A DNA stretch of 64,000 nucleotides from an uncultured Granulosicoccaceae bacterium (GCA_964393885.1 CAYMVV010000014.1:8111-72110); one strand, 5' to 3'; positions 1,192-27,697 are shown, numbered from the stretch's first letter. The notes: a model not told the origin generated them from the letters alone. Translations and numbers: made by a program.

Positions 1192-1444
1192 GTATTTTTG
1201 GCCTCATGACATTACGCGTAAGCGCGAGCATAAAAGCGCTCACACTACCCGATGGAAAAGCCATGAGTTTAACAGCGACTACAAAGCCAATATACAGGTC
1301 AGTTTACTTTGATAAGCCGCACACGGAATCTTTTGGCTCGATCCACCTCGCCTGCGACAGGCAGCGTGCCCCGGAACCAATACCAGGGAGCATGACCAGG
1401 CGCACGACAATGCGCACGACAGGGAGCGGTTACACAAGTGTCAT

Positions 1445-1540
1445 TACTGAAGAGCGACTACTGAAGAGCCGTTGCTGAAGAGCATTAATCAAGAGCCGTT
1501 AATCAAGACCCATAATCAAGAGCCTGCAATGATCAGAGCG
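1445..1540. repeat. Degenerate ~14-bp tandem array, about 7 units
   Basis: Read directly: tactgaagagcgac, tactgaagagccgt, tgctgaagagcatt, aatcaagagccgtt, aatcaagacccat, aatcaagagcctgc, aatgatcagagcg. The last unit overlaps the stop of the 1533..2165 gene. Confidence 0.75.
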
Positions 1541-2165
1541 TTTTAGCGAGTATATCGAAACACAGCTGCTCGACTGTTTGAGACAGCGTCGTCGCCAGTG
1601 CCCCGTAGCCATCGCCCCTTTGCGGCCGACGATACTCAAACAAAAATGTGCCGAGTGTGGCTGAATTGGCCGTAGAGTGCGTGGTCCACACACCATCAAA
1701 TACAGCGCCGCCCTTACCATCTCCCTGAAAGCGGTGAATTTCGATGTCGATTCGTTGTGGCTGTCTTTCGGATGTTGTATCACTTAACACACAACGCTCA
1801 AGATGGCGCTTGATCGCAACCGCGGGCAACTCGGCCCACAGATGATAGTTCGCCCACTCTACCTTACCTTCGGTGTCGGCAGTGATGATACCTGCCTGAG
1901 CCAGATACGCGGGTACCGTTACGCGATTGATTTGTAAATCGGCTTTTTTAACCCCGACACTGCCCTGCGGTAAAACCGCGTCAGACTCAAACGGCTGGAG
2001 CGTGTAGTACTGCTGTGTGGCAGGCGCACGCGAGGTACAACCAGGCAACAGCACAAGCAGCAGGGCAAGCAACAGGACAGTCTGCAGCGCCGATGTACCT
2101 GCTCTCGCAGCTTTTCTGCGAAACGGTACCAATGATAGACACACGTACGACACCCCGGAACTCAT
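1533..2165 (-). CDS. pqiC: PqiC-like ABC-transport auxiliary lipoprotein
   Basis: 210-aa ORF with signal peptide and lipobox (LLVLLPGC). Its start overlaps the stop of the upstream MCE gene by 4 nt. Position and size fit the third gene of a pqiABC operon. Confidence 0.55.
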   Translation of the reverse strand: MSSGVSYVCLSLVPFRRKAARAGTSALQTVLLLALLLVLLPGCTSRAPATQQYYTLQPFESDAVLPQGSVGVKKADLQINRVTVPAYLAQAGIITADTEGKVEWANYHLWAELPAVAIKRHLERCVLSDTTSERQPQRIDIEIHRFQGDGKGGAVFDGVWTTHSTANSATLGTFLFEYRRPQRGDGYGALATTLSQTVEQLCFDILAKTL

Positions 2166-11309: not shown

Positions 11310-11859
11310 TCAACTTTGACGGCTAAACAGGTAAAGTCAATCTGACCGTTATCAACAAACAACCGACGCTTCCACCCCACCACCGACGCCCTTGCAGAAA
11401 AACATGCAGCATTCGTTGCGATCAATATCGTCAACCTTCATAGAACCACCTGTTCACGCCTCCTGCATTCAACCATGACAGACCACACGTCGGTAACATC
11501 ATCATCCCTGACCTGACTGCCTCGTTACCAACATACGTGCAATGAGCTGATTAAATCAACTCCCACTGGGTATGAGCGTCGCATTTCGACCTGCTGATTG
11601 AGTCTGACCAACTCAAAACTACTACCCCTAATTTATTGTTATATAAGGCAATATGATTTGCTAAGATAGCGTGGAGCCCCTGTCGCTTCGCTCAGTGTGA
11701 GCGGCAGCATTGAGTTCCTGCGTCCTATAGATTATGCAACTCATTTATACAACACCGGGAATTTCAAAAAATCTCCGCCAGCTGAAAAGCTAACATTGAC
11801 CTTCTCCCTTCGCGCAGAGCGTCAGCACCGTCAATTTTACTTCAGCATGAGGCCATCAG

Positions 11860-12855
11860 ATGAACGAATCAAAATTTGGCAAAAATGATCGTCGCGGCAA
11901 TTGGTCGCCCAATGATCGCATCAGCTATGGGCCCTTCTTTAGCTGGCCTCCACAAGTAGCTGCGATCATTAAATGGATGTTTGGGTTTCCCGGTTACTTT
12001 CTGCCGTGGAATGTACTGTACGCGGCAGCGGCCATACTGATATGGCAGTTTTTGACACCGTCACTGGCCTCTTTCTCGGCCAGCATGAGTTACTGGATTG
12101 CGGTCATCCTGTTACGCAATATAGTGCTGGCGCTATTGGTATATGGTGGATGGCATTTGTGGTTATATATCTGGCGCAGACAAGGCACTGCATTTAAGTA
12201 CAATAAAGCCTGGCCTAAAGAGAATTCATCGATCTTTTTGTTCAACAATCAAACAGCCGACAATATGTTCTGGACGCTTGTCAGCGGTGTACCGATCTGG
12301 ACTGCCTATGAAGTACTATTACTCTGGGCCTATGCCAGCGGCCATATTACGCTGATCAATTTCTCTACCCACCCGATTAGTTTTATATTGCTGTTTTTTC
12401 TGGTCCCTTTTGTTCACGAGGTGGGGTTCTACTTTGCGCACCGCAGTCTGCATTGGCCACCGCTGTACAAACTGGCACACAAGCTCCACCACAGAAACAC
12501 TAATCCCGGACCGTGGTCAGGCCTATCGATGCATCCGCTTGAACACATCATCTACTTCTCTTCAATATTGGTGTTTCTGGTTATACCCGCGCACCCGATT
12601 CATATGATCAACCTTGCCTCCCGACTGGGGCTGGCGCCAGCTCAGGGGCACACCGGCTTCGATCGCATGCAGACGGGAGAAAATTCCAGCATGGATATTT
12701 CCTACTACGCCCACTATCTGCACCACAAGTACTTTGAGGTGAATTACGCTGATGGCATGGTGCCACTGGATAAGTGGTTTGGATCTTTCCATGATGGATC
12801 AGCAGAAGCACATGAAGCGATGAAGTCACGTATTGCACGTCGGATGCAGAGTTGA
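11860..12855 (+). CDS. Fatty-acid hydroxylase / sterol desaturase-family membrane protein
   Basis: 331-aa ORF with histidine boxes HRSLH, HKLHHR and HYLHH and several TM helices. The start is uncertain. Confidence 0.7.
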   Translation: MNESKFGKNDRRGNWSPNDRISYGPFFSWPPQVAAIIKWMFGFPGYFLPWNVLYAAAAILIWQFLTPSLASFSASMSYWIAVILLRNIVLALLVYGGWHLWLYIWRRQGTAFKYNKAWPKENSSIFLFNNQTADNMFWTLVSGVPIWTAYEVLLLWAYASGHITLINFSTHPISFILLFFLVPFVHEVGFYFAHRSLHWPPLYKLAHKLHHRNTNPGPWSGLSMHPLEHIIYFSSILVFLVIPAHPIHMINLASRLGLAPAQGHTGFDRMQTGENSSMDISYYAHYLHHKYFEVNYADGMVPLDKWFGSFHDGSAEAHEAMKSRIARRMQS

Positions 12856-12938
12856 TTTTTGTTGTGGGCTCCCTTTACAGTTGCCTGTCACTGGTTGATT
12901 AATACAACTACTCGAATTCAGTAAGGGTGCACTAAACG

Positions 12939-13913
12939 ATGAAAACCCTGATAATTGGCGCAGGAATCACCGGGTTGTCTGCTGCTCGACGCCTGCTCGA
13001 ATTGGGTATTACGCCGGATAACATCCATATTACTGACAAGTCTCGCGCTGTCGGTGGGCGTATGGCATCACGTCGTTTACAAACACCGTTCGGGACTGCC
13101 ACATTCGATCATGGCGCACAGTTTTTTACTACTCGCAGCGAGGCATTTAAAAATCTGCTAACTGCCGCTGAGCAGGCCGGCGCGGTTCGTGTCTGGACCA
13201 GAAGCTTCGCAGCGAACGAAGATGGTTATGCCCGCTGGTGCGGTAATACCGGCATGACTGGTCTGTGTAAATGGATGGCCACTGATGCTGGCCTGGACAT
13301 CGCATTTCAAACACCGGTAATAAATCTCGGTGAGCACCTGAAGCAGCACAAATACGATGCCGTGATTCACACTGCACCTGTACCGCAGGCACTGGCGACA
13401 TTAATCGGCGGTCGACTGCCGCCGCCGGACCTCGCCAGGCGACTTGCCGAAATTCACTACCATGCAACTCTTACAGTAATGCTGGCAACAAGTAACCACT
13501 CGACCGGCCTTGGACCCAGAGGTGCGGCTCAATTTGTCGACCACCCTGATCTCGCATTTATTACAGATAATCACGCCAAAGGCATCTCTTCTATCCCTGC
13601 CGTGACCATTCACCTCACGAATGCGCGCAGCGAAGCACTGTGGTCAGCACCTGATGATCAAGTGGTGAACTATGCAATGCAGGCTGCAGCAGAACACCTC
13701 GCGGATGCCAGTGACCCAAACGACCTGTTGGCAAGCTCTGTACAACGCTGGCGTTACGCCGATCCGGTTACCTGCTGGCCCGATAAGTATGTCATGTGGG
13801 GAGCAACCCCACGTATTGTGTTGGCCGGTGAGGCCTTTGACGGGCCTCGTGTTGAAGGTGGATTTTTATCAGGCCGTGCTGCGGCAGATGCACTGCTTAG
13901 TGACGGCGGTTAA
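12939..13913 (+). CDS. NAD(P)/FAD-dependent oxidoreductase (renalase-like, COG3380 type)
   Basis: 324-aa ORF with an N-terminal dinucleotide-binding motif IIGAGITGLSAARRL...DKSRAVGGRM. Confidence 0.65.
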   Translation: MKTLIIGAGITGLSAARRLLELGITPDNIHITDKSRAVGGRMASRRLQTPFGTATFDHGAQFFTTRSEAFKNLLTAAEQAGAVRVWTRSFAANEDGYARWCGNTGMTGLCKWMATDAGLDIAFQTPVINLGEHLKQHKYDAVIHTAPVPQALATLIGGRLPPPDLARRLAEIHYHATLTVMLATSNHSTGLGPRGAAQFVDHPDLAFITDNHAKGISSIPAVTIHLTNARSEALWSAPDDQVVNYAMQAAAEHLADASDPNDLLASSVQRWRYADPVTCWPDKYVMWGATPRIVLAGEAFDGPRVEGGFLSGRAAADALLSDGG

Positions 13914-14034
13914 CGACTAGCCGCCCGGCCTCGAACTATCGCGGCGGCTTACTCGATTGTGTGGAACCAGCAATAGCGTTGAGAATACCTTAGTTAAGCG
14001 TCCCTTGCGTCATACCCCAGGCTAACGCATCGAA

Positions 14035-14673
14035 TCAGTACAAACCACGCCGTATAGCGAGATTCTCCAAGGCTTTGTCGTTCCACGCCCGCGCCTCAAT
14101 TATCTCGGTCTCAATGTACGCCGAGTCCAATAACTCAACGCACAGCTCTTGATAAACTGACCAAAACTCAACAAAACCCGATTTTCCATTTAAATGCAGA
14201 GCTTTGCCTACCGGGGTACGTTCAACCCATGCAAATAATTTTTGCGTCCAGTCAGCCCCCCTCTCCCGGAGAACAATTTCATAGTGATCCACGGGGTTTT
14301 TGACGAAGAGGTAGGTAATCGAGGTATCAGGAGCGAGATCCTGCCAGCGCTGAAAGTAATTATCTATTTTTCTTCGGTGCACTCGCTGCTCAAAGAGAAA
14401 GCGAACGGTACTCTGAAATGCATACCCGTCGAATATAGAAACTGCCTGGGATTGGGAAGTTAAAAACGATTGCCAGGCATCTAGCCAGATGTTCGAAAAA
14501 TCTTTATTCTTCGATAAAGCTCTTCGCTCAGCGGGCATTACTGGATGATCTGCTGATTCCTCCAGCCACCAGGCAGCATCTACACCTTTGCTCTTAAGAA
14601 TATCGCAGAGACGCTCCGAAGCAGTGCTCTTTCCGGAACCCGCTATCCCTTCGAAATGAATTGTCTTAGTCAT
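14035..14673 (-). CDS. P-loop NTPase, kinase-like, unknown function
   Basis: Start moved to MTKTIHFEGIAGSGKST (Walker A). Remaining 212 aa have no other recognisable motif. Confidence 0.5.
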   Translation of the reverse strand: MTKTIHFEGIAGSGKSTASERLCDILKSKGVDAAWWLEESADHPVMPAERRALSKNKDFSNIWLDAWQSFLTSQSQAVSIFDGYAFQSTVRFLFEQRVHRRKIDNYFQRWQDLAPDTSITYLFVKNPVDHYEIVLRERGADWTQKLFAWVERTPVGKALHLNGKSGFVEFWSVYQELCVELLDSAYIETEIIEARAWNDKALENLAIRRGLY

Positions 14674-14943
14674 GCAATCAGCCTGAACCACAGTATGGCG
14701 AATGACTCTCGTTGGACATTTACAGAACCACATGTACCAACCTACCAGCCTGGAATCATAAAGTCGCGCCGCTTCACGAATATATGTGGATCAAGCCAGT
14801 CAAGCCGCGCAACCTTGCACATATGCTGCGCACAGATGAACCCCTTAGAAAGTTGTTTCTATGGTATTGTAACCGAGCACACAGGGTGCGCACCTGGACG
14901 TTTATTTGACCGCCCGGGGTGATTTTTTATAAGGGAGCATATT

Positions 14944-15621
14944 ATGCTAAAGAGGACAAAAATTGTATTGATTGGATCTTCAATTGCAATGTCCACTGTT
15001 ATGGTACAAGCGCAACAAAACGAAGAAGAGCAACCACCAATGACCTTTTTTGTCACAAGCGTTGGTACTGGCAATGGGGCAAACCTCGGGGGCTTAGACG
15101 GGGCGGATCAGCACTGCCAGAAACTGGCGGAGGCCGCGGGTTCAACCGATCAAACCTGGCGCGCGTACCTTAGCACGCAGGAGAGCGATGGTGAACCTGC
15201 CGTAAATGCCAGAGATCGCATTGGCAATGGTCCATGGCACAACGCAAAAGGTGTGCAGATCGGTGCAAACCTCGATTCGTTGCACTACGACAACTCGAAT
15301 ATTAACTATGCCGGCGCATTAAACGAGAACGGGAATACTATAAATTCTGGTGGTATGGGCAACACACCCAACCGGCACGACATTCTCACTGGCTCTCAAC
15401 TCGATGGCACAGCATTTCCGCCGACCGAGGACATGACGTGCAGCAACTGGACCAGTGGTGATGAAGCCGGTGCGGCATTTGTCGGTCATCACGACAGGTT
15501 TCGACGCACCACTCCAGGCAGCTCCTGGAATTCTGTGCATAAAAGCCGTGGCTGCAGTCAGGACAAACTAAAAATGTCCGGTGGAGATGGCTTGTTCTAC
15601 TGCTTTGCGTCTGACAGTTAA
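14944..15621 (+). CDS. Secreted cysteine-containing protein with endostatin/DUF1554-like domain
   Basis: 225-aa ORF with signal peptide (IGSSIAMSTVMVQA). FFVTSVGTGNGANLGGLDGADQHCQKLAEAAG...WRAYLST and CSNWTS match, by eye and from memory, the collagen XVIII endostatin pattern. Confidence 0.5.
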   Translation: MLKRTKIVLIGSSIAMSTVMVQAQQNEEEQPPMTFFVTSVGTGNGANLGGLDGADQHCQKLAEAAGSTDQTWRAYLSTQESDGEPAVNARDRIGNGPWHNAKGVQIGANLDSLHYDNSNINYAGALNENGNTINSGGMGNTPNRHDILTGSQLDGTAFPPTEDMTCSNWTSGDEAGAAFVGHHDRFRRTTPGSSWNSVHKSRGCSQDKLKMSGGDGLFYCFASDS

Positions 15622-15633
15622 CAAACCGACCAG

Positions 15634-15670
15634 ATTCACTGACCGGAAATCGGTCGGTGAATTTGTTTTT
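15634..15670 (+). terminator. Rho-independent terminator
   Basis: Stem attcactgaccg / cggtcggtgaat (12 bp, one U-G pair), loop gaaat, then ttgttttt, 13 bp after the stop at 15621. Confidence 0.7.
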
Positions 15671-16231
15671 GATCTAGCCATAGTTCTAACTGCCTGCCCC
15701 AACAATTGAACACGGCACCCATGTCTAGACCTGGGCTCACAATCAACGCCCTGTAAGTTTCTGCCTATTGCTCATCGCTTACTGACTCCTTTGACTAACT
15801 TTTACTCAATAAGTCTTTCCCATATAGAACACCAACAACACCTCGAAACGCCAACCTCTAACTCTCAAAACGGCGATGATTTATTACTTCGGAAAGGCTA
15901 TGGAAAAGTCTCGTTTCCCATGACGAAAAAACTGGATTAGCAATAACGCACTCTGGGCTCCAGGATTCAATTGACGCCTCCTGCCTATCGACCTGTAATC
16001 ATTGCTTGCTCGCTAATTATTACAGTGTTGTCCTTGTTTATTTTCGTCATCGCAACCGCACTGTTCCAATCCACACCTCGCTCTTCTCATCGTGTAATAA
16101 CTGCAGTGCTACACTGGTTTATAATGGGCGAGCGCTATATGGGTGGTATTCAGTGCCACCCTCCCGGCTTAGGAAATCCACAAGTCGCATTACATACAAT
16201 CCGGACTGGTCCGGAACATTAGAATCAGTCA

Positions 16232-18655
16232 ATGGCCATAAAAAAAACAGAACTCTACTCCTCCCTCTGGCAGAGCTGCGACGCCCTTCGCGGTGGCATG
16301 GATGCCTCCCAGTACAAAGACTACGTGCTCACCCTGCTATTCATGAAGTTCGTGACAGACAAGGCCCGCAACGATCCTGACTTCCTGCTCGATGTCCCCA
16401 AGGGCGCAAGCTTCGATGACATGTTGACGCTCAAGGGCAAGAAAAACATTGGCGAGGGCATCAACACCATCATTGCTGCCCTGGCCGAAGAAAACGAGCT
16501 GAAGGGCGTGATCGACGTTGCCGACTTCAACGACGAAGACAAGCTCGGCAAGGGCAAGGACATGATTGACCGGCTGTCGAATCTGGTCTCGATCTTTGAC
16601 GGCATTGATCTCGGCGCCAACCGTGCCTCGGGTGATGATCTGCTCGGTGATGCCTACGAATATCTGATGCGCCACTTCGCCACCGAGTCCGGCAAGTCCA
16701 AGGGGCAGTTCTACACCCCGGCCGAGGTCTCGCGCATTCTCGCGTCGATTGTTGGTGTCTCTGCCGATACCTCGCAAGACATGAGCGTCTACGATCCCAC
16801 CTGCGGCTCCGGCTCGCTGCTACTCAAAGTAGCAGATCGCGCTCCGCGTGGCCTGTCGATCTTCGGGCAAGAGATGGATAACGCCACCTCCGCATTGGCG
16901 CGAATGAACATGATTCTGCACGACAACGAAACCGCCCGAATCTGGCAGGACAACACCTTATCGTCCCCGCAGTGGACCAAGCCGGACGGCAGCCTGCAAA
17001 CCTTCGATTTCGCTGTCGCCAATCCGCCGTTCTCGTTCAAATCGTGGTCCACCGGCCTCAGCACCACCGATGATCCGTTCAACCGCTTCGAATACGGTGT
17101 GCCGCCAGACAAAAACGGTGACTACGCCTTTTTGTTGCACATACTCAAATCTTTAAAAAGCACCGGCAAGGCCGCAGTGATCCTGCCTCACGGCGTGCTG
17201 TTTCGCGGCAATGCCGAAAGTGTCATCCGCACCAACCTGCTCAAGCAGGGTTACATCAAAGGGCTAATGGGTCTGCCGGCAAACCTCTTTTACGGTACCG
17301 GCATACCTGCCTGCATCATCGTGATCGACAAATCCGCCGCCGGTGACCGCAACCCGGTGTTCATGGTCGATGCCAGTAACGCCTTCATGAAAGACGGCCC
17401 GAAAAACCGCTTGCGTGAGCAAGACATTCACAAAATCGTCGATGCCTTCAACAGCCAGCTTGAGTTACCGCGTTATTCGCGCCTGGTACCGTTTGATGAA
17501 ATCGAAGGCAACGAATTCAACCTCAACATCCCGCGCTATATCGACGGCTCCGACCCTGAGGACCTGCATGACCTCGGCGCACACATGCGTGGCGGCATAC
17601 CCGTAGCCGATATCGATGCACTGGAAAACTACTGGCAGGTACTACCAAAGCTGCGTGCCTCACTGTTCAAGCGCCGCAAGGGTGAGGCCTATGCCGACGC
17701 ACTGATCGAACCGACACAAGTTAAAGACACCATCCTCAACCACCCAGAGTTCACCGCCTTTGCCGACAGCGCCATGCAGCGTTTTGAAGACTGGTGGCAA
17801 GCACATGAACCGGCACTTGCAGGTATTGCCATCGGTGACGAACCACACGCGCTGATCGAAACGCTGTCAGAAGATTTATTGCAACGATTCGCCGATGCAC
17901 CGCTGCTGGATAAATACGATATCTATCAGTTACTGATGGACTACTGGCAGGAGACATTGCAGGACGATGTATACCTGCTGGCGCAAGACGGCTGGCAAGT
18001 AGCCAAAGTGTTGCGAGAACTCAAAGTTGAAAAAGGCCAGAAGCTACGTGAAGCGCCAAGCCTTGTTTACAAGAAGCAAAAATTCATCGCAGACCTGATT
18101 CCGCCACAACTGATTGTTGAACGGTTCTTTACCGAACAAAAGGGCAACATCGAAGAATCCGAACGCGCAGCGGAAATTGTCGAGAGTGAACTGGAAGCAT
18201 TGTTGGAAGAACATGGCGGTGATGAAGGCTGTCTGCTGGATGCCTTGAGTGATACCGGCAAATTGGTAAAAGGCAAGCTAGGCAAACTGATAAAAGAAGC
18301 CTCAGACAAAGAAGAAAAAGCTGCACTTGAAAAAGCAAAAAAATTGCTGGATACACAGACAGATAGCAGGAAGGCCGTAAAAGCAGCCGAGGAAGCACTA
18401 ACAGAAATAACGCTACAGAAGTATTCGCAGTTGAGCAATGAAGAAGTGAAATCTTTGCTGTTGGACGATAAATGGCACGCCACATTGTTTGCATCGGTGC
18501 GCGGATCGGTTGATCGGGTCACGCAGCGTTTGGCCGAGCGCGTAAAAACTATAGAAGAACGCTACGCTGATCCGCTGCCATTGATAGAACAATCTGTGGA
18601 AGCGTTGTCTGGCACTGTCGGCAAACATCTTAAACAGATGGGCATACGGTGGTGA
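16232..18655 (+). CDS. hsdM: Type I restriction-modification system methyltransferase subunit (long form, 807 aa)
   Basis: N-terminal HsdM_N-like ELYSSLWQSCDALRGGMDASQYKDYVLTLLFMKF. AdoMet motif VYDPTCGSGSLL. Catalytic NPPF (VANPPFSFKSW). About 300 aa of Lys/Glu-rich C-terminal extension. Confidence 0.9.
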   Translation: MAIKKTELYSSLWQSCDALRGGMDASQYKDYVLTLLFMKFVTDKARNDPDFLLDVPKGASFDDMLTLKGKKNIGEGINTIIAALAEENELKGVIDVADFNDEDKLGKGKDMIDRLSNLVSIFDGIDLGANRASGDDLLGDAYEYLMRHFATESGKSKGQFYTPAEVSRILASIVGVSADTSQDMSVYDPTCGSGSLLLKVADRAPRGLSIFGQEMDNATSALARMNMILHDNETARIWQDNTLSSPQWTKPDGSLQTFDFAVANPPFSFKSWSTGLSTTDDPFNRFEYGVPPDKNGDYAFLLHILKSLKSTGKAAVILPHGVLFRGNAESVIRTNLLKQGYIKGLMGLPANLFYGTGIPACIIVIDKSAAGDRNPVFMVDASNAFMKDGPKNRLREQDIHKIVDAFNSQLELPRYSRLVPFDEIEGNEFNLNIPRYIDGSDPEDLHDLGAHMRGGIPVADIDALENYWQVLPKLRASLFKRRKGEAYADALIEPTQVKDTILNHPEFTAFADSAMQRFEDWWQAHEPALAGIAIGDEPHALIETLSEDLLQRFADAPLLDKYDIYQLLMDYWQETLQDDVYLLAQDGWQVAKVLRELKVEKGQKLREAPSLVYKKQKFIADLIPPQLIVERFFTEQKGNIEESERAAEIVESELEALLEEHGGDEGCLLDALSDTGKLVKGKLGKLIKEASDKEEKAALEKAKKLLDTQTDSRKAVKAAEEALTEITLQKYSQLSNEEVKSLLLDDKWHATLFASVRGSVDRVTQRLAERVKTIEERYADPLPLIEQSVEALSGTVGKHLKQMGIRW

Positions 18656-18683
18656 CTGATAGACTGCCAGTGAAGGCTGATCT

Positions 18684-20141
18684 GTGAATCAACAAGAGCT
18701 CATCTCGTTGCTTGCAGAACTGCGTGCCCTGCCGCAAGAAACAGAATGGGTGGAGTTCAAGCACAACAGAGCTGAGCCGAATGATATCGGGGAGTATTTG
18801 TCTGCATTGGCTAACTCTGCGGCTTTGCATGGTAAAGGTGCTGCATACATTGTGTGGGGAGTGGAAGATGTTACTCACAATATTGTTGGAACCACGTTTA
18901 AGCCACGCCTCACCAGGCAAGGTAATGAGGAGCTTGAAAACTGGCTGTTGCGTTTATTGTCACCACGTATAGATTTTCAGATTTATGAGGGCAGTGTTGA
19001 ATCTTTCAATGTGGTGATCTTCAAAATACAGCCGGCTTCGCATACACCGGTCAGCTTTAGTGGAGTGGAATACATCCGGGTTGGCAGCTTGAAAAAGAAG
19101 CTCAAGGAATACCCGGAAAAAGAACGAACATTATGGGCTGGTTTTGCGGCAACGCCATTCGAGAAAGGTGTGGCACTTACAACAGTATCATCGGACGATG
19201 TACTGAACCTGATCGACTATCCGGTATGTTTTGAATTACTTGGTCATGCTCTGCCGGATAATCGACAAGGTATTCTACAGCGATTGAAACAGGAAAAAGT
19301 AATCAGGCATAGAGCGGAGGGTCAATATGACATCACTAACCTTGGCGCCATATTGTTCGCTAAAGATCTGAACCAGTTCGAACGCTTATCTCAAAAAGCT
19401 TTACGCGTTATTCAATACAAAGGTAACAATCGCATAGAAACGCTTCGGGAGCAGATTGGAAAGCGTGGCTATGCATCCGGGTTTGAAGGCCTTGTGTCAT
19501 TCATTGATAATCTATTGCCGCAGAATGAGCAGATAGAAAAAGCGCTTCGCCAGAAAGAATCTCTCTATCCACAACTGGCTATTCGTGAGCTGGTTGCCAA
19601 TCTGCTCGTTCATCAGGACTTTACCCTCAGCGGCACAGAACCCATGGTAGAAATTTTTGCTGACCGAATTGAATTTACTAACCCCGGTAAGCCACTCATT
19701 GAAGTGTTGCGGTTTATCGATGAGCCACCGCAATCCAGAAATGAAGACCTGGCAGATTTGATGCGCCGAATGGGAATCTGTGAACGGCGGGGGAGTGGAA
19801 TCGATAAAGTGATTTCGCAGGTTGAATTGTTTCAGCTTCCGGCGCCCAAGTTTTCTGAAACCTCGCGGCACACCAAAGCTACATTGTTTGCCCCAAAATC
19901 TTTGAACGATATGGATCGAGACGATCGCATCCGCGCCTGCTATCAGCACGCCTGTTTGCGTTATGAGTCAAATGAGCAAATGACTAATGCTTCATTTCGG
20001 GATAGGCTCGGAGTAGATAAGAAGAATTACGCGATTGTCTCTCGTATAATCCGGGACGCCATCGATGCCAATCTGGTACAGGCGGTCGATCCCGACACCG
20101 GCCCTCGTTATATGCGGTATGTACCGTTCTGGGCTGCGTAG
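18684..20141 (+). CDS. AlbA_2 (Schlafen-like) / HATPase_c_4 / probable wHTH protein (COG2865 type)
   Basis: 485-aa ORF with GTG start and AAGG upstream. N-terminal ETEWVEFKHN...YIVWGVED. Central IRELVANLLVHQDF...ERRGSGIDKV. Lies 28 nt after hsdM on the same strand. Confidence 0.7.
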   Translation: MNQQELISLLAELRALPQETEWVEFKHNRAEPNDIGEYLSALANSAALHGKGAAYIVWGVEDVTHNIVGTTFKPRLTRQGNEELENWLLRLLSPRIDFQIYEGSVESFNVVIFKIQPASHTPVSFSGVEYIRVGSLKKKLKEYPEKERTLWAGFAATPFEKGVALTTVSSDDVLNLIDYPVCFELLGHALPDNRQGILQRLKQEKVIRHRAEGQYDITNLGAILFAKDLNQFERLSQKALRVIQYKGNNRIETLREQIGKRGYASGFEGLVSFIDNLLPQNEQIEKALRQKESLYPQLAIRELVANLLVHQDFTLSGTEPMVEIFADRIEFTNPGKPLIEVLRFIDEPPQSRNEDLADLMRRMGICERRGSGIDKVISQVELFQLPAPKFSETSRHTKATLFAPKSLNDMDRDDRIRACYQHACLRYESNEQMTNASFRDRLGVDKKNYAIVSRIIRDAIDANLVQAVDPDTGPRYMRYVPFWAA

Positions 20142-20154
20142 TGTGGTGCGCCGA

Positions 20155-20272
20155 TTCTATGTGATGGCTATGTGATAGCAATGGGGGCTGGGAAGCGGGA
20201 AAACTGAACGGATTCAATAAAAACAATAACTTAAAATTGAATTAGTGCGGGTTTCTATGTGATGGCTATGTG
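20155..20272. repeat. Perfect 20-bp direct repeat ttctatgtgatggctatgtg (20155-20174 and 20253-20272)
   Basis: Read directly in the 264-bp spacer between the AlbA_2-type gene and hsdS. Each copy contains an internal tatgtg...tatgtg sub-repeat. Confidence 0.85.
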
Positions 20273-20405
20273 CAAACCTCTTTCAAATCAGCCGGATTTT
20301 ATCGTATATGGGTGACAAATTATCCGAAGCTCCATTGAAGGTGCCTGCACTTTATCGTCTGGTCTGTCGATCACGCCCTTTAATCAAATTGGTGGGAGTT
20401 GATCT

Positions 20406-21575
20406 ATGACAAATGGGTCAATAACTGAATGGATTTCATGCTGCTTCGGTGACATTACTACTCTAGTATCCTCTGGACGTTCAAAAAAATTTAATCAAGG
20501 TGAACATGTTCTATACGGGTCTACGGGACAAATTGGTTGGACGAATGATTTAGCAGTAACAACTAAAGCCATATTGGTGGCGAGGGTTGGCGCTAATGCT
20601 GGTACTGTCCAGTATGTCAAGGGACAGTTTGGCGTAACCGATAACACGATCATTGTTCAAATTAAAAATGAGCAGTCTTATGGGTACTGGTTTTTGTATT
20701 TAACGCACGAGAATCTGAATGACATAATTTATGGTTCTGGTCAGCCATTGATAACTGGAAGTATTATCAAAAGATTGGAGGTATCGATGCCGCCAATAAA
20801 GGAACAAAAAGCAATAGCCAAAGCCCTGTCCGACACAGATGCGCTGATTGCCGCGCTGGAAAAGTTGATTACGAAGAAGCGAGCCATCAAAACCGCCACC
20901 ATGCAGCAACTGCTGACCGGCAAAACCCGCTTGCCGGGCTTTGGCGAGGGCAAGGGCTACAAGGATTCGGAGTTGGGGCGGATACCGGAGGATTGGGAGG
21001 TTGTGCCTATATCTACTTTTGCCAGCGTAGTATCTGGGGGTACTCCAAGTAGAGATAACGGAGGTTACTGGGGTGGAGATATTCCTTGGGTTACGACAAC
21101 TCTTATTAGCTGGAAAGCGATAGTTCAGGTTGACGAGTACATATCTGAATCCGGTCTTTTTAACTCTGCTGCAAAATGGATTTCGAAAGGCGCTGTTCTG
21201 ATGGCCATGTATGGGCAGGGAAAAACGAGAGGGAAAGTTGGGCTACTAGGAATTGATGCAACAATAAACCAAGCATGTGCAGCGATAGAGCCAAGAAATA
21301 CAGTGGACGGACAATACCTTTTTTATCACCTTCAGAATAGATATTTTGAACTTCGCGAGCTAAGTAATTCTGGCGGCCAAGAGAATTTAAGCGGTGGAAT
21401 AATCAAGGAACTAATGGCGATTTTGCCGGAGAAAGATGAACAAAAAACAATTGCTGAAGTTCTTTCGGATGTGGATAAGGAGATAGCAACGCTTGAGAAA
21501 CAGATTGAAAAAACTAGCGAACTCAAGGTGGCTATGATGCAACAACTCCTAACCGGCCGCACCCGTCTAGTATGA
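20406..21575 (+). CDS. hsdS: Type I restriction-modification system specificity subunit
   Basis: 389 aa. Two variable target-recognition regions are separated by conserved repeats PPIKEQKAIAKALSDTDALIAALEKLI...MQQLLTGKTRL and LPEKDEQKTIAEVLSDVDKEIATLEKQI...MMQQLLTGRTRL. Confidence 0.9.
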   Translation: MTNGSITEWISCCFGDITTLVSSGRSKKFNQGEHVLYGSTGQIGWTNDLAVTTKAILVARVGANAGTVQYVKGQFGVTDNTIIVQIKNEQSYGYWFLYLTHENLNDIIYGSGQPLITGSIIKRLEVSMPPIKEQKAIAKALSDTDALIAALEKLITKKRAIKTATMQQLLTGKTRLPGFGEGKGYKDSELGRIPEDWEVVPISTFASVVSGGTPSRDNGGYWGGDIPWVTTTLISWKAIVQVDEYISESGLFNSAAKWISKGAVLMAMYGQGKTRGKVGLLGIDATINQACAAIEPRNTVDGQYLFYHLQNRYFELRELSNSGGQENLSGGIIKELMAILPEKDEQKTIAEVLSDVDKEIATLEKQIEKTSELKVAMMQQLLTGRTRLV

Positions 21576-24500
21576 AAGATTCAGTCGGCCAGATAGAGAG
21601 GCTAACTCAAAACCGCGTAATACGGTTCTTTCAAGACACACTCGCCTACCGCTACCTGGGTGACTGGCACGACCGTGAAAACAACCGCAACATAGAAACT
21701 GAGATTCTAACCGACTGGCTGAAAACTCAGTCCGTAGATGATGCGCTAATCCCTCGCGCTCTACGCGAACTGGATCGCGCATCTGCACTGGGTGAAGGCA
21801 AACACCTATATGACGCCAACCGCGCCACTTACGAGTTACTTAAATACGGTGTCAAAGTAAGCGCCGGAGCTGGTGAACACAAAACCACAGTCAACCTGAT
21901 CGACTGGAGCAATCCACTCAACAACGACTTCGCCATTGCAGAAGAAGTCTCCGTAAAAGGTGAAAACAAGAAACGCCCGGACATCGTGCTGTATATTAAC
22001 GGTATTGCACTGGGTGTATTGGAACTCAAACGCTCATCAGTCAGTGTGTCTGAAGGCATTCAGCAAAACCGGAGTAATCAGGAAAAACACTTCATCCGCA
22101 ACTTCTTCACCACCATGCAACTGGTGTTAGCAGGCAATGATTCCGAAGGCTTGCGTTACGGCACGATCCTCACACCAGAGAAACACTTCTACCAGTGGAA
22201 GCAGGATGAGCGGTTTGCTGATGGTGTGAATGCAGACAATCGGCTGGACAGTGATCTTGCCGTTCTATGTGATAAGGCACGATTGCTTGAGATTGTGCAC
22301 GATTATGTGGTGTTTGATGCAGGTGTTAAAAAGATACCTCGACACAATCAGTATTATGGAGTGCGCGCGGCACAAGCTTTTGTGAATCGCAAGGAAGGCG
22401 GCATCATCTGGCATACGCAAGGCTCGGGTAAATCACTGACCATGGTATGGCTTGCCAAGTGGCTGCGCAGTAATCTGGAAGATGCAAGGGTACTTGTAAT
22501 TACTGATCGTCGTGAACTGGATGAACAAATTGAGCAGGTGTTTACCGGTGTTGATGAACAGATTGTGCGTACTAAAAGTGGTTCTGACCTGATTGACAAG
22601 CTCAACCAGACTACTCCGTGGCTGCTGTGCTCATTAGTCCACAAGTTTGGCGGTAAGGGTGAGATCAGTGATGCTGAGCTGACCGAGAAAGATGCCAAAC
22701 AGTACATAGAAGACTTACGCAACAGCCTGCCGACTGATTTCAAAGCCAAAGGCAATGTGGTCGTGTTCGTAGATGAATGCCATCGCACCCAGTCGGGCAG
22801 CCTGCATGAGGCGATGACTTCACTGTTGCCCAATGCGCTCTTTATCGGTTTTACCGGCACACCATTATTAAAGGCAGACAAGGCTCGCAGCATTGAAGTG
22901 TTTGGTCGCTACATTCATACCTATAAATTTGATGAGGCGGTAAAGGATGGCGTAATACTGGATCTTCGTTATGAAGCACGTGATATTGATCAGTACGTAG
23001 GGAATCAAAAAAAGATTGATCAATGGTTTGAATCTAAAACCAATGGCCTCACAGATTACGCCGTAACCCAAATTAAAAAGCGCTGGGGCACGATGCGTAG
23101 CTTGTTTTCCAGTGAGGCACGTCTTGGACGCATTGTTCAGGACATTTTGTTCGATATGGAAACCAAAGAAAGGCTCTCTTCAGGCCGTGGTAACGCCATG
23201 CTGGTCTGCGACAGCGTATTCCAGGCTTGCAAGGTCTACGAGATGTTTCAGAGTACGCCACTGGCTGGTAAGTGCGCCATTGTCACCAGCTATAAGCCGT
23301 CGCCCGGAGATATTTCCAAGGAGGAGACCGGTGAAGGCTTAACCGAAAAACTCCGCAAGTACGACATCTACCGTGGAATGCTATCCAAACACTTCGAGGT
23401 GGCGGAAGATCAGGCCATGTACAAGATTGAAGACTTTGAAACGCAGGTAAAAAAGCGTTTTAAGGACGAACCGGCGCAAATGAGGCTGTTAATCGTGGTG
23501 GACAAACTGCTAACAGGTTTCGACGCACCTTCTGCGACCTATCTGTACATAGACAAAAAAATGCAGGACCACGGCTTGTTTCAGGCCATCTGCCGCGTGA
23601 ACCGGCTTGATGGTGACGATAAAAGCTACGGTTACATTGTTGACTATAAAGATCTGTTCAAAAGCCTGGAAGGTGCTGTGGCTGATTACACCCATGACGC
23701 GCTGGATGGATACGATGAGAAAGATATAGAAGGCTTGCTGACGGATCGCGTCGAGAAGGGGCGTGAAAAGCTGGATGATGCATTGGAAGCTGTTCGAGCG
23801 CTATGTGAGCCTGTCATGCAACCCAGAGACGATGCTGCCTATATTCGCTACTTCTGCGGCGATACACAAAGCAAGGATGACCTGCGCAACAATGAAACCA
23901 AACGTATCAAGCTCTATAAGCTGGCCGGGGCGCTGGGCCGTGCCTATCTGGATATGGCTGATGAAATGGAAAAGGCAGGTTACAGTGATGATGAAACAGA
24001 GGCAATAAAGCAACACGTTAGTGTATACACCCGAGCATCTGATGTAGTGAAACTGGCCGCCAACGAAAAAATTGATTTAAAGCAATATGAGCCTGCGATG
24101 CGTCATTTGCTGGATTCCTACATAGAGGCTCGTGATAGCCAGCCACTTGTACAGTTTCATGAACTGGGTGTTCTTGAATTACTGATGAAGCATGGTGCCA
24201 GCGGTGCTGCAGAAGTAGAAAAAGCCATGGGTGGAAATCGCAATGCAGCTGCAGAAACCATAGAGAATAACGTTCGCAAGAAGATAATCGAAGAGCAGGC
24301 GGTTAACCCAAAATACTATGAAAAAATGTCTGAACTACTGGATGCTTTGATCGCACAACGCCGCGCCGAAGTACTTGAGTACCAGGACTATCTGGAACAA
24401 ATAGCCGCACTGGCAGAACAGGTGAGCAAGCCGGGTGGGGGTAACACCGCGAACTACCCTGCCAGCCTGAATACCGCTGCGATGCAAGCGATCTATGACA

Positions 24501-24694
24501 ATCTTGGCAAAGATGAATTGCTGGCAGTACGCATCGATACAGCAGTGCGCTACACCAAAGAAGCCCACTGGGTGGGTGATCGCATGAAGGAGCGCAAGGT
24601 CAAACGTGCACTGCGCAAGGAACTACCCGATGCTACAGACGACCAGATTGACGACTTGCTTGCATTAGTAAAACACCAGTCTGATTACCAGTGA
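21572..24694 (+). CDS. hsdR: Type I restriction endonuclease subunit R
   Basis: 1040 aa. Nuclease-like PDIVLYINGIALGVLELK. Helicase motif I HTQGSGKSLTM and motif II VFVDECHRTQ. ATGA overlap with hsdS. Confidence 0.9.
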   Translation: MKDSVGQIERLTQNRVIRFFQDTLAYRYLGDWHDRENNRNIETEILTDWLKTQSVDDALIPRALRELDRASALGEGKHLYDANRATYELLKYGVKVSAGAGEHKTTVNLIDWSNPLNNDFAIAEEVSVKGENKKRPDIVLYINGIALGVLELKRSSVSVSEGIQQNRSNQEKHFIRNFFTTMQLVLAGNDSEGLRYGTILTPEKHFYQWKQDERFADGVNADNRLDSDLAVLCDKARLLEIVHDYVVFDAGVKKIPRHNQYYGVRAAQAFVNRKEGGIIWHTQGSGKSLTMVWLAKWLRSNLEDARVLVITDRRELDEQIEQVFTGVDEQIVRTKSGSDLIDKLNQTTPWLLCSLVHKFGGKGEISDAELTEKDAKQYIEDLRNSLPTDFKAKGNVVVFVDECHRTQSGSLHEAMTSLLPNALFIGFTGTPLLKADKARSIEVFGRYIHTYKFDEAVKDGVILDLRYEARDIDQYVGNQKKIDQWFESKTNGLTDYAVTQIKKRWGTMRSLFSSEARLGRIVQDILFDMETKERLSSGRGNAMLVCDSVFQACKVYEMFQSTPLAGKCAIVTSYKPSPGDISKEETGEGLTEKLRKYDIYRGMLSKHFEVAEDQAMYKIEDFETQVKKRFKDEPAQMRLLIVVDKLLTGFDAPSATYLYIDKKMQDHGLFQAICRVNRLDGDDKSYGYIVDYKDLFKSLEGAVADYTHDALDGYDEKDIEGLLTDRVEKGREKLDDALEAVRALCEPVMQPRDDAAYIRYFCGDTQSKDDLRNNETKRIKLYKLAGALGRAYLDMADEMEKAGYSDDETEAIKQHVSVYTRASDVVKLAANEKIDLKQYEPAMRHLLDSYIEARDSQPLVQFHELGVLELLMKHGASGAAEVEKAMGGNRNAAAETIENNVRKKIIEEQAVNPKYYEKMSELLDALIAQRRAEVLEYQDYLEQIAALAEQVSKPGGGNTANYPASLNTAAMQAIYDNLGKDELLAVRIDTAVRYTKEAHWVGDRMKERKVKRALRKELPDATDDQIDDLLALVKHQSDYQ

Positions 24695-25422
24695 ATACGC
24701 CAGAGACAGTTAGCAGTATCCGAGTGGCCGGGCTCACTGTGCAGGTCCAGCGTAAAGCAATCAAGAACCTGCATCTCTCTGTCCTGCCACCGGACGGCAA
24801 GGTTCGTATCGCGGTACCGCAGCACGTCACTGAAGATGCCATTCGCCTTGCAGTCGTAGATAAGCTCGGATGGATAAAACGCCAGCGCCTGGAGTTTCAG
24901 GCACAAACCAGACAGACCGAGCGACGCTACGTCAGCGGAGAGTCGCACTACTACCTTGGCAAAGCATATCGTCTTCGAGTAGAACATGGCACACGCCAGA
25001 ACGTGACCCTATGTGGCGGCAACAGACTATTATTGACAACCCGCCCCGATAGCGACACAGCAACACGCGAACGTACGTTGGCACGCTGGTATCGCAAGCA
25101 GTTGGCAGAACAAATTCCGCCACTACTCCAAAAATGGCATCCGAAAGTAGGCAAGGAATGCAGCCGCTGGGGTATCAAACAGATGAAAACTAAATGGGGC
25201 AGCTGCAACACAGGGACCGGGAGCATCTGGTTAAACCTGGAACTCGCCAAAAAGCCCCCTGCTTGCCTTGAATTTATTTTGGTTCATGAACTCGTGCATT
25301 TACACGAACGAACCCACAACGATAAATTCCGTGGCTGGATGGACAAGTTGATGATTGACTGGCCGGAACGAAGGGCGCTTCTAAACAGCTCTCCGCTGGC
25401 TCATGATGAATGGAATTATTGA
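24691..25422 (+). CDS. DUF45 / YgjP-like (M48-type) zinc metallopeptidase
   Basis: 243 aa. GTG start overlaps the hsdR TGA (GTGA). WGSCNTGTGSIWLNLELAK followed by HExxH in ILVHELVHLHERTHN. Confidence 0.8.
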   Translation: MNTPETVSSIRVAGLTVQVQRKAIKNLHLSVLPPDGKVRIAVPQHVTEDAIRLAVVDKLGWIKRQRLEFQAQTRQTERRYVSGESHYYLGKAYRLRVEHGTRQNVTLCGGNRLLLTTRPDSDTATRERTLARWYRKQLAEQIPPLLQKWHPKVGKECSRWGIKQMKTKWGSCNTGTGSIWLNLELAKKPPACLEFILVHELVHLHERTHNDKFRGWMDKLMIDWPERRALLNSSPLAHDEWNY

Positions 25423-25447
25423 ATGGGATATTTTAAGGCTTAGTTCA

Positions 25448-26176
25448 ATGAACATGGACAAAGAAATCGAGGCATCCTTACGTGAATTTCTCGTCGACAT
25501 TGGGTGTAGTCATGCTAACGATACTCGCACAGGTGGAAAGACCGATAATTGGAAGATTGCTATTTATGAGCGCGATGGCCTTCAGGTCGCATTCTACGAC
25601 AAAAAACAAACTATCCATTTAATACTAGAGCACTATGACGATATCATCCCAAACGTACGACGAAATCCGAGAGCGGAAGGCAGTCAAAGAATAAAGCCTT
25701 CGTTAAACATCCACGTCGAAGTGCATACTTTGAAAGAAGCGCTAACGATACTAAAACACTATTACAACGCAAAGACACACGTAACAACTTTTGAAAACCA
25801 CAATGCCAAACACGAAAATGCAGTAATCAATTCCCGCAAGGACAGTTCAATAAATCGTCAAGCCCGACTAGCGCATGCACCGAAAAAACCGAAAAAGAGA
25901 ACAGTTACAATAACGGTCTTTGACCGGAACCCGGATGTTATCGCAGAAGTTCTGGAAAGAGCAAATGGTACCTGCGAAGGTTGCAATGAGCCTGCGCCGT
26001 TTATCAGGGCGAGAGATGGAACACCATACCTGGAAGTTCATCACAAAGATCCATTAGCGCAAGATGGCGAAGATACAGTCGAGAAAGCAATAGCGCTGTG
26101 TCCAAATTGCCACCGTGAGGCGCACTTTGGCTCAAATCCAGCAAACAGCATCCATCGATTAACCACAGGAAATTAA
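25448..26176 (+). CDS. HNH endonuclease (McrA-like C-terminal domain) with unassigned N-terminal domain
   Basis: The ORF is open from 25403. I prefer the ATG at 25448 (AAGG 12 nt upstream). C-terminus CEGCNEPAPFIRARDGTPYLEVHHKDPLAQDGEDTVEKAIALCPNCHREAHFG is a classic HNH/McrA-type motif. The first ~160 aa are unrecognised. Confidence 0.75.
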   Translation: MNMDKEIEASLREFLVDIGCSHANDTRTGGKTDNWKIAIYERDGLQVAFYDKKQTIHLILEHYDDIIPNVRRNPRAEGSQRIKPSLNIHVEVHTLKEALTILKHYYNAKTHVTTFENHNAKHENAVINSRKDSSINRQARLAHAPKKPKKRTVTITVFDRNPDVIAEVLERANGTCEGCNEPAPFIRARDGTPYLEVHHKDPLAQDGEDTVEKAIALCPNCHREAHFGSNPANSIHRLTTGN

Positions 26177-26179
26177 AAG

Positions 26180-27451
26180 TTGATCGAAGACGCCTTGAAA
26201 TCTACTCGAAATCTGCATCGTTTGATCATCGGCGTCAGCATTGCAGTACTAGTATTTTCTTTGTCAATGTATCTGGCAGAAGATAAAGTACGTCAGAAGG
26301 CCGCGATCGATGCACTTATCGAAATCGACTTCCTGGGCTATGAAGGCTGGCTTAAGGAACAGCTTGATAAAGAGATCGCCACCAGAGTGATACCGGCCGT
26401 GAAACCGGTTCGCGATCTGCTAGCGAGCGATGAATATCTCATATTCGAGCTGGATTCGATTACAGATGCACTTGAAGGCACACCCCATATCGGTCAGTTT
26501 CTTGTTGGCGAATCCAATCTCGCTAATGTCTCCGCCGCCACATTGACGTCGCTTGATGCGTTAAATGGTCTGTCGCTAGAACAGGATGTACAACTAACCG
26601 TGCCAAATATTAATTTCCTGATGCAGGAACTACAGGAGTTTCTGACGGACAACAATAAAGCCGGTAAACGGGTAACCGATGCGAGCACATCATTGACCAA
26701 TGATCCTCCAATACTTACCACGTTCCTGCCTGACTCCACACCCATAGCATCTCTTGATTTTCAACTGGCGGATGTCACAGTCACAGGCGCGATACCTGTA
26801 TTTCAGCATTTGTATGATGTCGATGTTGTCAACATCCCAAACTCGTCGTTCCTCATATGGTTGTCTCAGCAAGGATTTGACCCCATCATACGGATCGACG
26901 GTGGCGAGATACTGTTTTTACCCGACGTCCGCCCGCTGCCAAAGGGTTTTGCCGAAGAATCACTTGGCATTCTATCATTGCGCCTGGCAGATGAGATTCG
27001 TGCCGCAGGCCCAGAGCAGCGCACGCTAACCATACTGGGCACCACAGTACCTGGACGGTTGCTGGTGCTGGCCGCACCATTGGTATTGCTAGCCCTGCTC
27101 TACTATTTCAAAAGTCACCTGTCTCACCTCACTCGGATGTCAGATCAGCATGCCGACGAGATGGTCGGGTTTTCCTGGCTGCCGATTAACTTGAGTCGCT
27201 GGCAGTTGCCGGGCACCGGATTCCAATGGTCAGGGCATGTTGCGGAGTTGATTACCACTCTCGCAGTACTGCCGGTGGGAGCCTTGCTGGTGATGTACTT
27301 TAGACTAAGCCCGTTCGGCGGTGTCGGCATAGGAACATCGCTCCTGATCGGGTGCACCTGTTCTGTTGCATTGGTGATTTGCTGGATGTCACTAGTTGAA
27401 GTCAAAACCATTCGGCAACGAGTTATGCTTGTTATGCAAACTCAATCCTAG
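26180..27451 (+). CDS. Hypothetical membrane protein (1 N-terminal + 3 C-terminal predicted TM helices)
   Basis: 423-aa ORF with TTG start, AGGAA 9 nt upstream, 3 nt after the HNH stop. Hydrophobic helices: LIIGVSIAVLVFSLSMYL, RLLVLAAPLVLLALLYYF, VAELITTLAVLPVGALLVMYF, IGTSLLIGCTCSVALVICWMSLV. No recognisable family. Confidence 0.6.
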   Translation: MIEDALKSTRNLHRLIIGVSIAVLVFSLSMYLAEDKVRQKAAIDALIEIDFLGYEGWLKEQLDKEIATRVIPAVKPVRDLLASDEYLIFELDSITDALEGTPHIGQFLVGESNLANVSAATLTSLDALNGLSLEQDVQLTVPNINFLMQELQEFLTDNNKAGKRVTDASTSLTNDPPILTTFLPDSTPIASLDFQLADVTVTGAIPVFQHLYDVDVVNIPNSSFLIWLSQQGFDPIIRIDGGEILFLPDVRPLPKGFAEESLGILSLRLADEIRAAGPEQRTLTILGTTVPGRLLVLAAPLVLLALLYYFKSHLSHLTRMSDQHADEMVGFSWLPINLSRWQLPGTGFQWSGHVAELITTLAVLPVGALLVMYFRLSPFGGVGIGTSLLIGCTCSVALVICWMSLVEVKTIRQRVMLVMQTQS

Positions 27452-27697
27452 CAAGGCGCTTCAGGATGACGTCATAGCCACGTGGTGAGTTAAGGTAGTG
27501 GCCATTGATAAGACTAGTGCTCAGGGGTTGCTCGCTGTCTGCCATATTTAAATGGCGAATTCAAATAGTAAAAGGTGCCTTTGATCAAAAAATGCAGATA
27601 CAGCTTGTGTCTAGTCTGCCCTGAGAGATTACGATTTTCTTTCTTATCGAAACGGTAGAAAAAGTAGCCAAATCCCGCGGAAAAGGCGCAATTCCAA

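Follow-up and report, generated by a model that had tools for sequence, protein, structure and literature searches.

A type I restriction-modification locus with embedded and appended cargo in an uncultured Granulosicoccaceae bacterium: a probable stack of separable defence modules

Genes embedded in type I restriction-modification (R-M), BREX and Hma systems have been described under the concept of 'guilt by embedding' (Payne et al. 2024, 10.1101/2024.01.29.577857), and embedded defence genes include TgvAB in V. cholerae VPI-2 (PMC11411939) and PrrC in EcoprrI (PMC12707154). The RRDM island of enteropathogenic Escherichia coli (EPEC), with the gene order RptR-HsdM-HsdS-DarT-DarG-HsdR-M48 peptidase, is active against phages (Zhang et al., NAR 2025; PMC12255303). 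Here we analyze a locus of related design in a 64,000-nt stretch of DNA (hereafter, the window) from a Granulosicoccaceae gammaproteobacterium (GCA_964393885.1, CAYMVV010000014.1:8111-72110), in which the hsdM, hsdS and hsdR genes of a type I R-M system share one strand with genes for a Schlafen-like protein, a DUF45 metallopeptidase, an HNH nuclease and a membrane protein. These seven genes are a mosaic and not one new system, that is, an R-M operon with embedded and appended cargo, a design that has already been described. In our assessment, the locus is quite probably a stack of separable defence modules on a four-gene type I R-M chassis that was acquired horizontally and assembled piecemeal, with the Schlafen, HNH and membrane protein genes as three additions that are each mobile on their own.

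The restriction-modification chassis and its cargo

All seven open reading frames (ORFs) are intact on the plus strand (16232-27451), and the gene names proposed in the original prediction, which was made by reading the sequence without database searches, agree with the assignments obtained from Pfam, PADLOC and NCBIfam (Table 1). HsdM matches N6_Mtase (PF02384, E 2.5e-99) and HsdM_N, is covered over its full length by PADLOC MTase_I (PDLC03027), scores 273 bits with TIGR00497 (cut-off 242.75) and retains, as read from the sequence, motif I (DPTCGSGS) and motif IV (NPPF). Methylase_S (PF01420) is found in two stretches of HsdS, that is, two target-recognition domains (TRDs), and the protein also matches PADLOC Specificity_I (E 3e-87). 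HsdR combines HSDR_N, SWI2_SNF2 and T1R_D3-like domains in Pfam (539 bits with TIGR00348, 1477 bits with PADLOC REase_I) and has intact PD...ELK, GSGKS and DECH motifs. All three subunits thus have the sequence features of the type I R-M core that had been claimed. The predicted junctions hold as well: hsdS and hsdR overlap by 4 nt (ATGA), hsdR and the DUF45 gene overlap at GTGA, the DUF45 and HNH genes overlap by 20 nt (or, with the start chosen by the gene caller, ATG at 25448, are separated by 25 nt), and 3 nt separate the HNH gene from the membrane protein gene; further upstream, the gaps are 28 nt between hsdM and the Schlafen gene and 264 nt between the latter and hsdS.

The chassis becomes apparent from a survey of 80 loci that encode HsdR relatives with 58-92% identity and come from many bacterial phyla and from archaea. 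A DUF45 gene lies directly 3' of hsdR in 76 of the 77 loci whose downstream sequence is long enough and is therefore a core, rather than accessory, gene of this R-M family. In the window, its start codon overlaps the hsdR stop codon, and the encoded protein is YgjP-like (PF01863, E 4.8e-59), with a weak SprT-like match and an intact HELVH motif. HsdM is about 810 aa long throughout the hsdR-family loci, so that the 807 aa of the window protein are typical. The chassis is, accordingly, a widespread four-gene type I R-M system that consists of a long hsdM, hsdS, hsdR and a YgjP/DUF45 gene. The report on RRDM names the metallopeptidase only as a component of the island (PMC12255303), and our literature searches on the role of DUF45/YgjP with type I R-M found essentially nothing; the near-universal coupling of hsdR with DUF45 across bacteria and archaea is one of the three most useful outputs of this analysis.

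The same survey shows how variable the interior of the operon is. At least 500 nt separate the hsdS match from hsdR in 53 of 71 loci, and the ORFs in the internal slot match GmrSD (16), YhcG (9), AlbA_2 with HATPase_c_4, the domain pair of the window's Schlafen gene (9 of the 80 loci), and DUF7834 (8); further families found there are NucS_C, Fic, DarT/Macro (DarT and Macro cargo in two loci of the sampled hsdR family), AbiEii-like and PIN.

The closest copy of the R-M locus (L043), from a Chromatiales bacterium associated with Bugula neritina, matches window positions 16231-25406 at 80-84% nucleotide identity in hsdM, the Schlafen gene, hsdR and the DUF45 gene. The homology begins exactly at 16231, i.e. 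the left spacer lies outside it, and the flanks of L043 are unrelated to those of the window. Within hsdS, conservation is limited to the central part (20802-21007, 96%) and the 3' end, whereas both TRDs are unrelated; this pattern points to swapped TRDs, apparently a clean case of specificity change by TRD exchange. The tail of L043 is different, too: the DUF45 gene is followed by overlapping genes for a HipA_C-like kinase and a HIRAN-domain protein (13829-15576), another candidate two-gene cargo, and an IS66 insertion sequence (IS) lies upstream (1033-3413).

The product of the first tail gene in the window aligns with the HNH domain of EcoKMcrA (6GHC; E 3.2e-22 over the 115 residues 138-252) and with PADLOC mREase_IV (PDLC03656, E 1.8e-22), and its CxxC...HH...CxxC-H motif is intact, with both CxxC pairs and the HH. 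The alignments cover residues 135-252 only; residues 1-134 have no match in the Protein Data Bank (PDB), Pfam or PADLOC, and this N-terminal domain is rare, with only about 9 full-length relatives found. These alignments make the protein a candidate for a type IV (modification-dependent) restriction enzyme. Close homologues follow hsdR-DUF45 in locus L129 and a DUF45 remnant in locus L128, and neither of these loci has the membrane gene. A distant full-length homologue (43% identity) is part of another small defence cluster (L130:926-5062), where it lies between two genes for unknown proteins (231 and 217 aa) and an AIPR abortive-infection gene; an IS110 fragment is adjacent.

The last gene encodes a protein with four transmembrane (TM) segments and a domain of about 255 aa between TM1 and TM2, for which no match was found in Pfam, NCBIfam, PADLOC or PHROG. 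Its AlphaFold2 (AF2) model has a pLDDT of 84 and matches no PDB fold at E<0.1; the best match has an E of 0.17, and an LptE-like fold was rejected given that the respective matches are not significant. A word-indexed search yielded 25 matches, and an exhaustive profile search yielded 324 cluster representatives in 1.84 billion proteins. In eleven loci with homologues, the gene stands alone, near Tn3, toxin-antitoxin, H-NS or plasmid replication genes or near type II R-M, and the upstream neighbours are unrelated to each other. Only the closest homologue (L127, 74% identity) is encoded behind an hsdR gene, 24 nt past the 3' end of one from a different type I family, by our reading a C-terminus of the T1RH/DUF3387 type (L127, 1-1998). 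The protein thus represents a small orphan family with a confidently modelled but unmatched fold that recurs in mobile and defence contexts, and this family is another of the three useful outputs.

The HNH and membrane proteins might be thought to form a two-gene defence module, a membrane sensor or effector with a nuclease, appended to the operon: the pair is not in PADLOC, its genes are nearly contiguous, and both occur in variable or mobile contexts. However, an HNH homologue is absent from all 11 loci with membrane-protein homologues, and none of the five loci with full-length HNH homologues has the membrane gene. In the metagenome ERZ6863860, the HNH homologue (86% protein identity) and the closest membrane-protein homologue are on different contigs, L128 and L127, respectively, and L128 is homologous to the window only up to 26195, immediately past the HNH stop codon. 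Because each gene is found elsewhere without the other, they are best viewed as two independent additions, and a joint module appears highly improbable.

About as improbable, in our view, is that the locus serves the host chiefly for epigenetic or housekeeping methylation rather than defence and its neighbours are unrelated passengers without immune function. Type I systems can indeed act as regulators, e.g. in phasevarions (PMC7383803), the borders lack a mobility gene, and the composition is near the genome mean; yet the nuclease and helicase motifs of HsdR are intact, the locus is missing from all relatives examined, and the neighbours are members of McrA and of the bacterial Schlafens (PMC13056530), for which antiviral roles have been shown or predicted.

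The Schlafen-like gene and its iteron element

The product of the embedded gene matches AlbA_2 (PF04326, E 8.8e-20) and HATPase_c_4 (PF13749, E 5.4e-23) in Pfam and has an ExxxxEFK motif, ETEWVEFK, at residues 19-26, which we take to be the acidic active-site motif of the Schlafen family. In its AF2 model (pLDDT 87.7), a Schlafen-like N-domain is followed by a GHKL ATPase and a C-terminal winged helix, the latter comprising, in region 412-481, helices H412-428, H435-442 and H446-461 and a beta wing. The Foldseek matches include an uncharacterised full-length homologue (3LMM, E 3e-20), the N-domains of SLFN11/13/14 (E ~3e-4 to 9e-4), histidine-kinase GHKL domains (probability 1.00 but weak E, 7e-3 to 1e-2) and the winged-helix domain 2dk5 (probability 0.99 but weak E, 0.16). 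Judging by the modelled domain architecture, the gene belongs to the catalogued HisKinase-HTH class, which accounts for 19.2% of prokaryotic Schlafens; the architectures tested in that study did not include this class itself (PMC13056530). It is the most common class of bacterial Schlafens that bear a helix-turn-helix (HTH). The Schlafen+GHKL supradomain has been named 'Schlatpase', and a stand-alone gene of this kind has already been noted in a type I R-M operon; in SLFN-pAgo, tRNA is cut by the Schlafen domain, and the GHKL domain is what drives the formation of tetramers, which depends on ATP (10.64898/2026.05.29.728809).

Orthologues of the window gene were collected from 80 loci (L141-L220, 55-71% identity). 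There are hsd genes within 7 kb in 32 of these, and among the 54 immediately downstream genes, 15 are hsdR, 3 hsdS, 2 hsdM and 4 of the Eco57I/MmeI type. A random distribution of the accessory genes relative to type I R-M systems would have spoken against the original prediction; the Schlafen gene is associated with restriction genes in a clearly non-random, though not exclusive, manner.

Downstream of the gene lie two iteron sites, each with two 11-bp half-sites, the distal site being 134 nt upstream of hsdS. Between the window and L043, all 40 positions of the two sites are identical, compared to 39 mismatches in 145 positions of the rest of the spacer (P about 4e-6). The corresponding architecture, defined as a tandem half-site pair that starts 0-39 nt past the stop codon and a second site downstream, is present in 47 of 81 Schlafen loci, versus 0/81 shuffles and 0/80 coding controls. 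The distances between the sites cluster at 87-90, 97-102 and 107-111 bp, equivalent to 8, 9 and 10 steps of 11 bp, and in many loci the distal site is directly 5' of the hsdR start.

The sequence of the half-sites varies from locus to locus (TATGTGA, TATTTGA, TGCTTGA, TAGTTGA and others) and co-varies with residue 449, in the first turn of the predicted recognition helix H446-461. Tyrosine at this position goes with ATGT in 14 of 15 cases (the fifteenth, L150, has TGTT by automatic anchoring and looks mis-anchored), lysine with AATT, AGTT or GATT in 6 of 7, serine or alanine with xTTT, and glutamine with GCTT. In a tree built from residues 1-420 only, three separate losses of the tyrosine inside the Y clade (L216; L165/L178; L167) each coincide with TATTTGA, and the K/S sister pairs L173/L184 and L204/L207 differ likewise in their half-sites. 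Because residue 449 co-varies with the half-site and the sites are conserved, binding of the winged helix at the iterons, just upstream of hsdS-hsdR, is predicted; the pattern suggests contact of the Schlafen protein with the half-sites, plausibly as a tetramer that loops the DNA. Typically, in type I R-M operons, the gene with its sites is located just upstream of hsdR, or of hsdS-hsdR as in the window, and the element also accompanies Schlafen orthologues without a detectable hsd gene nearby.

We tentatively propose, while putting the odds somewhat below even, that the Schlafen-GHKL-winged-helix class is a self-contained cassette of a gene and two helically phased half-site pairs, in which a tetramer would bind all four half-sites through its four winged helices and loop the DNA and would either control or roadblock the expression of the restriction subunit or anchor a silent nuclease until infection. 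Term searches of PMC13056530 and 10.64898/2026.05.29.728809 returned no mention of an operator or a winged HTH; phased iteron pairs or co-variation were not otherwise searched for. The co-variation is a new, concrete and cheaply testable lead that bears on the tethering or regulation of an abundant Schlafen class and on the control of restriction-gene expression; the cassette model, if true, would link a Schlafen effector mechanistically to restriction. Two other candidate functions of the spacer were rejected, namely a promoter between the two iteron sites of the window (the -35 element is poor) and a repeat RNA as in type III toxin-antitoxin systems (the two 98-nt units share only the 20-mer).

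The predicted binding sites upstream of hsdS-hsdR also bear on the original prediction that the accessory genes regulate or back up the R-M core and that, as a set, they make up a system without a name. In its strong form, this prediction implies that the seven genes are one integrated, undescribed system, with the accessory proteins as obligate regulators or back-up effectors of the Hsd complex. Such integration would fit the co-directional genes with overlapping or 3-nt junctions from hsdS onward as well as the near-universal coupling of DUF45 to hsdR, and with PrrC in EcoprrI there is a known case of a guard that is embedded within a type I system (PMC12707154). Nevertheless, apart from DUF45, each accessory gene occurs elsewhere without the others, the closest R-M copy has a different tail, and the iteron element also occurs with Schlafen orthologues that have no detectable hsd gene in their vicinity; we consider a single integrated system unlikely. 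The description as a composite immune locus stands, and regulation has some support for the Schlafen gene only. The proposed unnamed accessory set dissolves into a core gene of the R-M family (DUF45), a member of a catalogued class (Schlafen) and two genes that occur apart (HNH and membrane protein).

Genomic setting

The block is accessory genome and was probably acquired horizontally. It is missing from the relatives examined: among 30 genus or class relatives, none has an orthologous hsdR (no match above 34% identity). The original prediction had suggested a synteny comparison with related genomes. To the left, the nearest relative (G005) covers the endostatin-like gene and its homology ends at about window position 15718-15800; to the right, three Granulosicoccaceae relatives match from 28305 on, starting with an RND pump. 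These boundaries delimit a non-syntenic segment of about 15.8-28.3 kb, which includes the cytochrome P460 gene. At the 28305 junction, the contigs of two of the three relatives end, and the third runs into unrelated genes.

Several observations weigh against a horizontally acquired stack of separable modules. An empty site, sought in G005 and two other Granulosicoccaceae metagenome-assembled genomes, could not be demonstrated, because these relatives are rearranged and not colinear or their contigs end at the junction; the synteny comparison therefore falls short of an indel. The composition profile, also suggested earlier, gave a signal too weak to serve as a marker of foreign origin: with 48.7% GC, the block is below the genome's 50.7% but only mildly atypical (10th percentile of 12-kb windows), and the tetranucleotide distance is unremarkable, with 17% of windows further from the genome mean. 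From hsdS to the membrane gene, adjacent genes overlap or are 3 nt apart, which implies co-transcription and makes functional interplay possible. The two closest contexts of the membrane protein gene, in the window and in L127, are both at the tail of an hsdR gene. Finally, sigma-70-like promoters between the iteron sites of the 47 loci are not above the level of shuffles or of the opposite strand. The profile did reveal that GC3 ranges from 0.41 to 0.64 between neighbouring genes, and such gene-by-gene swings are as expected of the mosaic that we favour.

The original claim that the borders lack any mobility gene, tRNA or integrase holds for this copy; the closest copy elsewhere adjoins IS66. 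The nearest tRNA is at 61039, no integrase or transposase was detected at the borders, with the nearest tyrosine recombinase about 39 kb to the right, past the end of the window, and no flanking direct or att-like repeats were found at the borders. The spacers had been put at about 560 and 245 bp; the right one is 246 bp long, and the left one extends over 610 bp when counted from the upstream stop codon. The terminator of the upstream gene, in the last stretch shared with G005, takes up the initial ~45 nt of the left spacer.

Table 1. Features of the locus and its borders, in window coordinates
Feature	Position	Strand	Remarks
Intrinsic terminator of the upstream endostatin-like gene	15631-15665	+	16-bp stem, then T run
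Left spacer, genome-specific	15719-16231	.	upstream of hsdM
hsdM	16232-18655	+	807 aa, long type I methyltransferase
AlbA_2/HATPase_c_4 (Schlafen) gene	18684-20141	+	485 aa
Proximal iteron site	20155-20185	+	tandem 11-bp half-sites CTATGTGATGG CTATGTGAT, 14 nt past the Schlafen stop codon
Distal iteron site	20253-20272	+	exact 20-mer copy, 98 bp from the first site
hsdS	20406-21575	+	specificity subunit
hsdR	21572-24694	+	restriction/translocase subunit
YgjP/DUF45 zinc metallopeptidase ('M48-family')	24691-25422	+	
HNH gene	25403 (or 25448)-26176	+	McrA-type nuclease
Membrane protein gene	26180-27451	+	423 aa, 4-TM
Right spacer and cytochrome P460 gene (27698-28285)	27452-28298	+	not defence genes; within the non-syntenic segment

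Within the left spacer, the segment 15824-16013 (~190 bp) has a 78% identical, intergenic copy on another contig of the same genome (C306:1916-2105). An RNA element in the spacers was rejected: neither the spacers nor the repeated segment has an Rfam match, and the segment folds no better than shuffled sequences (z = 0.27). An exact 17-nt direct repeat, ACAGGTTTCGACGCACC, is found in the endostatin-like gene (15494-15510) and in hsdR (23513-23529); with an estimated expectation of about 0.005-0.01 for a region of this size, it is probably due to chance. The P460 gene has the lowest GC content of the region (40.6%, GC3 0.38), and its best matches in relatives (77-81% nucleotide identity) are on other contigs.

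To the left of the endostatin-like gene, a second non-syntenic stretch (11595-14797) contains genes for a fatty-acid hydroxylase, an FAD amine oxidase and a P-loop kinase-like protein, in place of which G005 has 1.2 kb of other sequence; the whole neighbourhood is therefore a hotspot of variability. In addition, a G005 contig carries an element of about 250 bp (L034:7620-7930, contig C74) to which the window's genome has matches of 80-94% identity on more than 30 contigs. It has the appearance of an abundant repeat akin to miniature inverted-repeat transposable elements, which probably explains many of the contig breaks in these assemblies.

Mode of action and comparison with described systems

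The following scheme can be proposed for the stack of modules. Judging by the intact motifs and the family membership, HsdM2S would methylate a bipartite target on the host chromosome, and HsdR2M2S would translocate along and cut unmethylated incoming DNA. The DUF45 peptidase, translationally coupled to hsdR, might be involved in proteolytic control or clearance of HsdR complexes, which is a guess. The Schlafen cassette in the slot between hsdM and hsdS would be independently mobile, with its own winged helix probably binding the two phased half-site pairs that accompany the gene. If it resembles those bacterial Schlafens that have been characterised, the protein may act as an ATP-switched tRNA nuclease and thereby as a back-up to restriction. 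Where modified DNA evades the type I system, the McrA-type HNH nuclease probably provides cover, and the membrane protein would be a separate orphan.

The island as a whole is one more example of a described design, type I R-M with embedded and appended defence genes. RRDM comes close to it, with seven ORFs and the same chassis (long hsdM, hsdS, embedded cargo, hsdR and an M48/YgjP-type metallopeptidase), and IS66 lies beside the EPEC island as it does beside L043, whereas there is no IS at the window copy. The two islands differ in their cargo: in RRDM, DarTG is inserted between hsdS and hsdR, whereas in the window the Schlafen-GHKL-HTH gene is located between hsdM and hsdS, with hsdS and hsdR overlapping by 4 nt, and two extra genes follow at the tail. 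They differ in regulation, too. RRDM has RptR and TAGCTA repeats upstream of hsdM, and the window lacks both: the only ORF upstream of hsdM (15971-16222) is a hydrophobic 83-aa frame that is no candidate for RptR, and there is no TAGCTA site between 11023 and 34364, so that RptR-type regulation was rejected.

At the level of single modules, the Schlafen protein resembles the HisKinase-HTH class and Schlatpase in the combination of AlbA_2, HATPase_c_4 and a C-terminal HTH. EcoKMcrA (6GHC), a methylcytosine-dependent HNH type IV enzyme, shares the C-terminal HNH domain of the window protein, the N-terminal ~135 residues of which are unlike the McrA reader domain. With the embedded-gene systems, the locus has in common independent defence genes between hsd genes and the combination of a type IV nuclease with type I R-M, that is, complementary cover of modified and unmodified DNA; it differs from them in that the type IV candidate is an McrA-type HNH protein, not a GmrSD-like one, and is encoded after the operon and not inside it.

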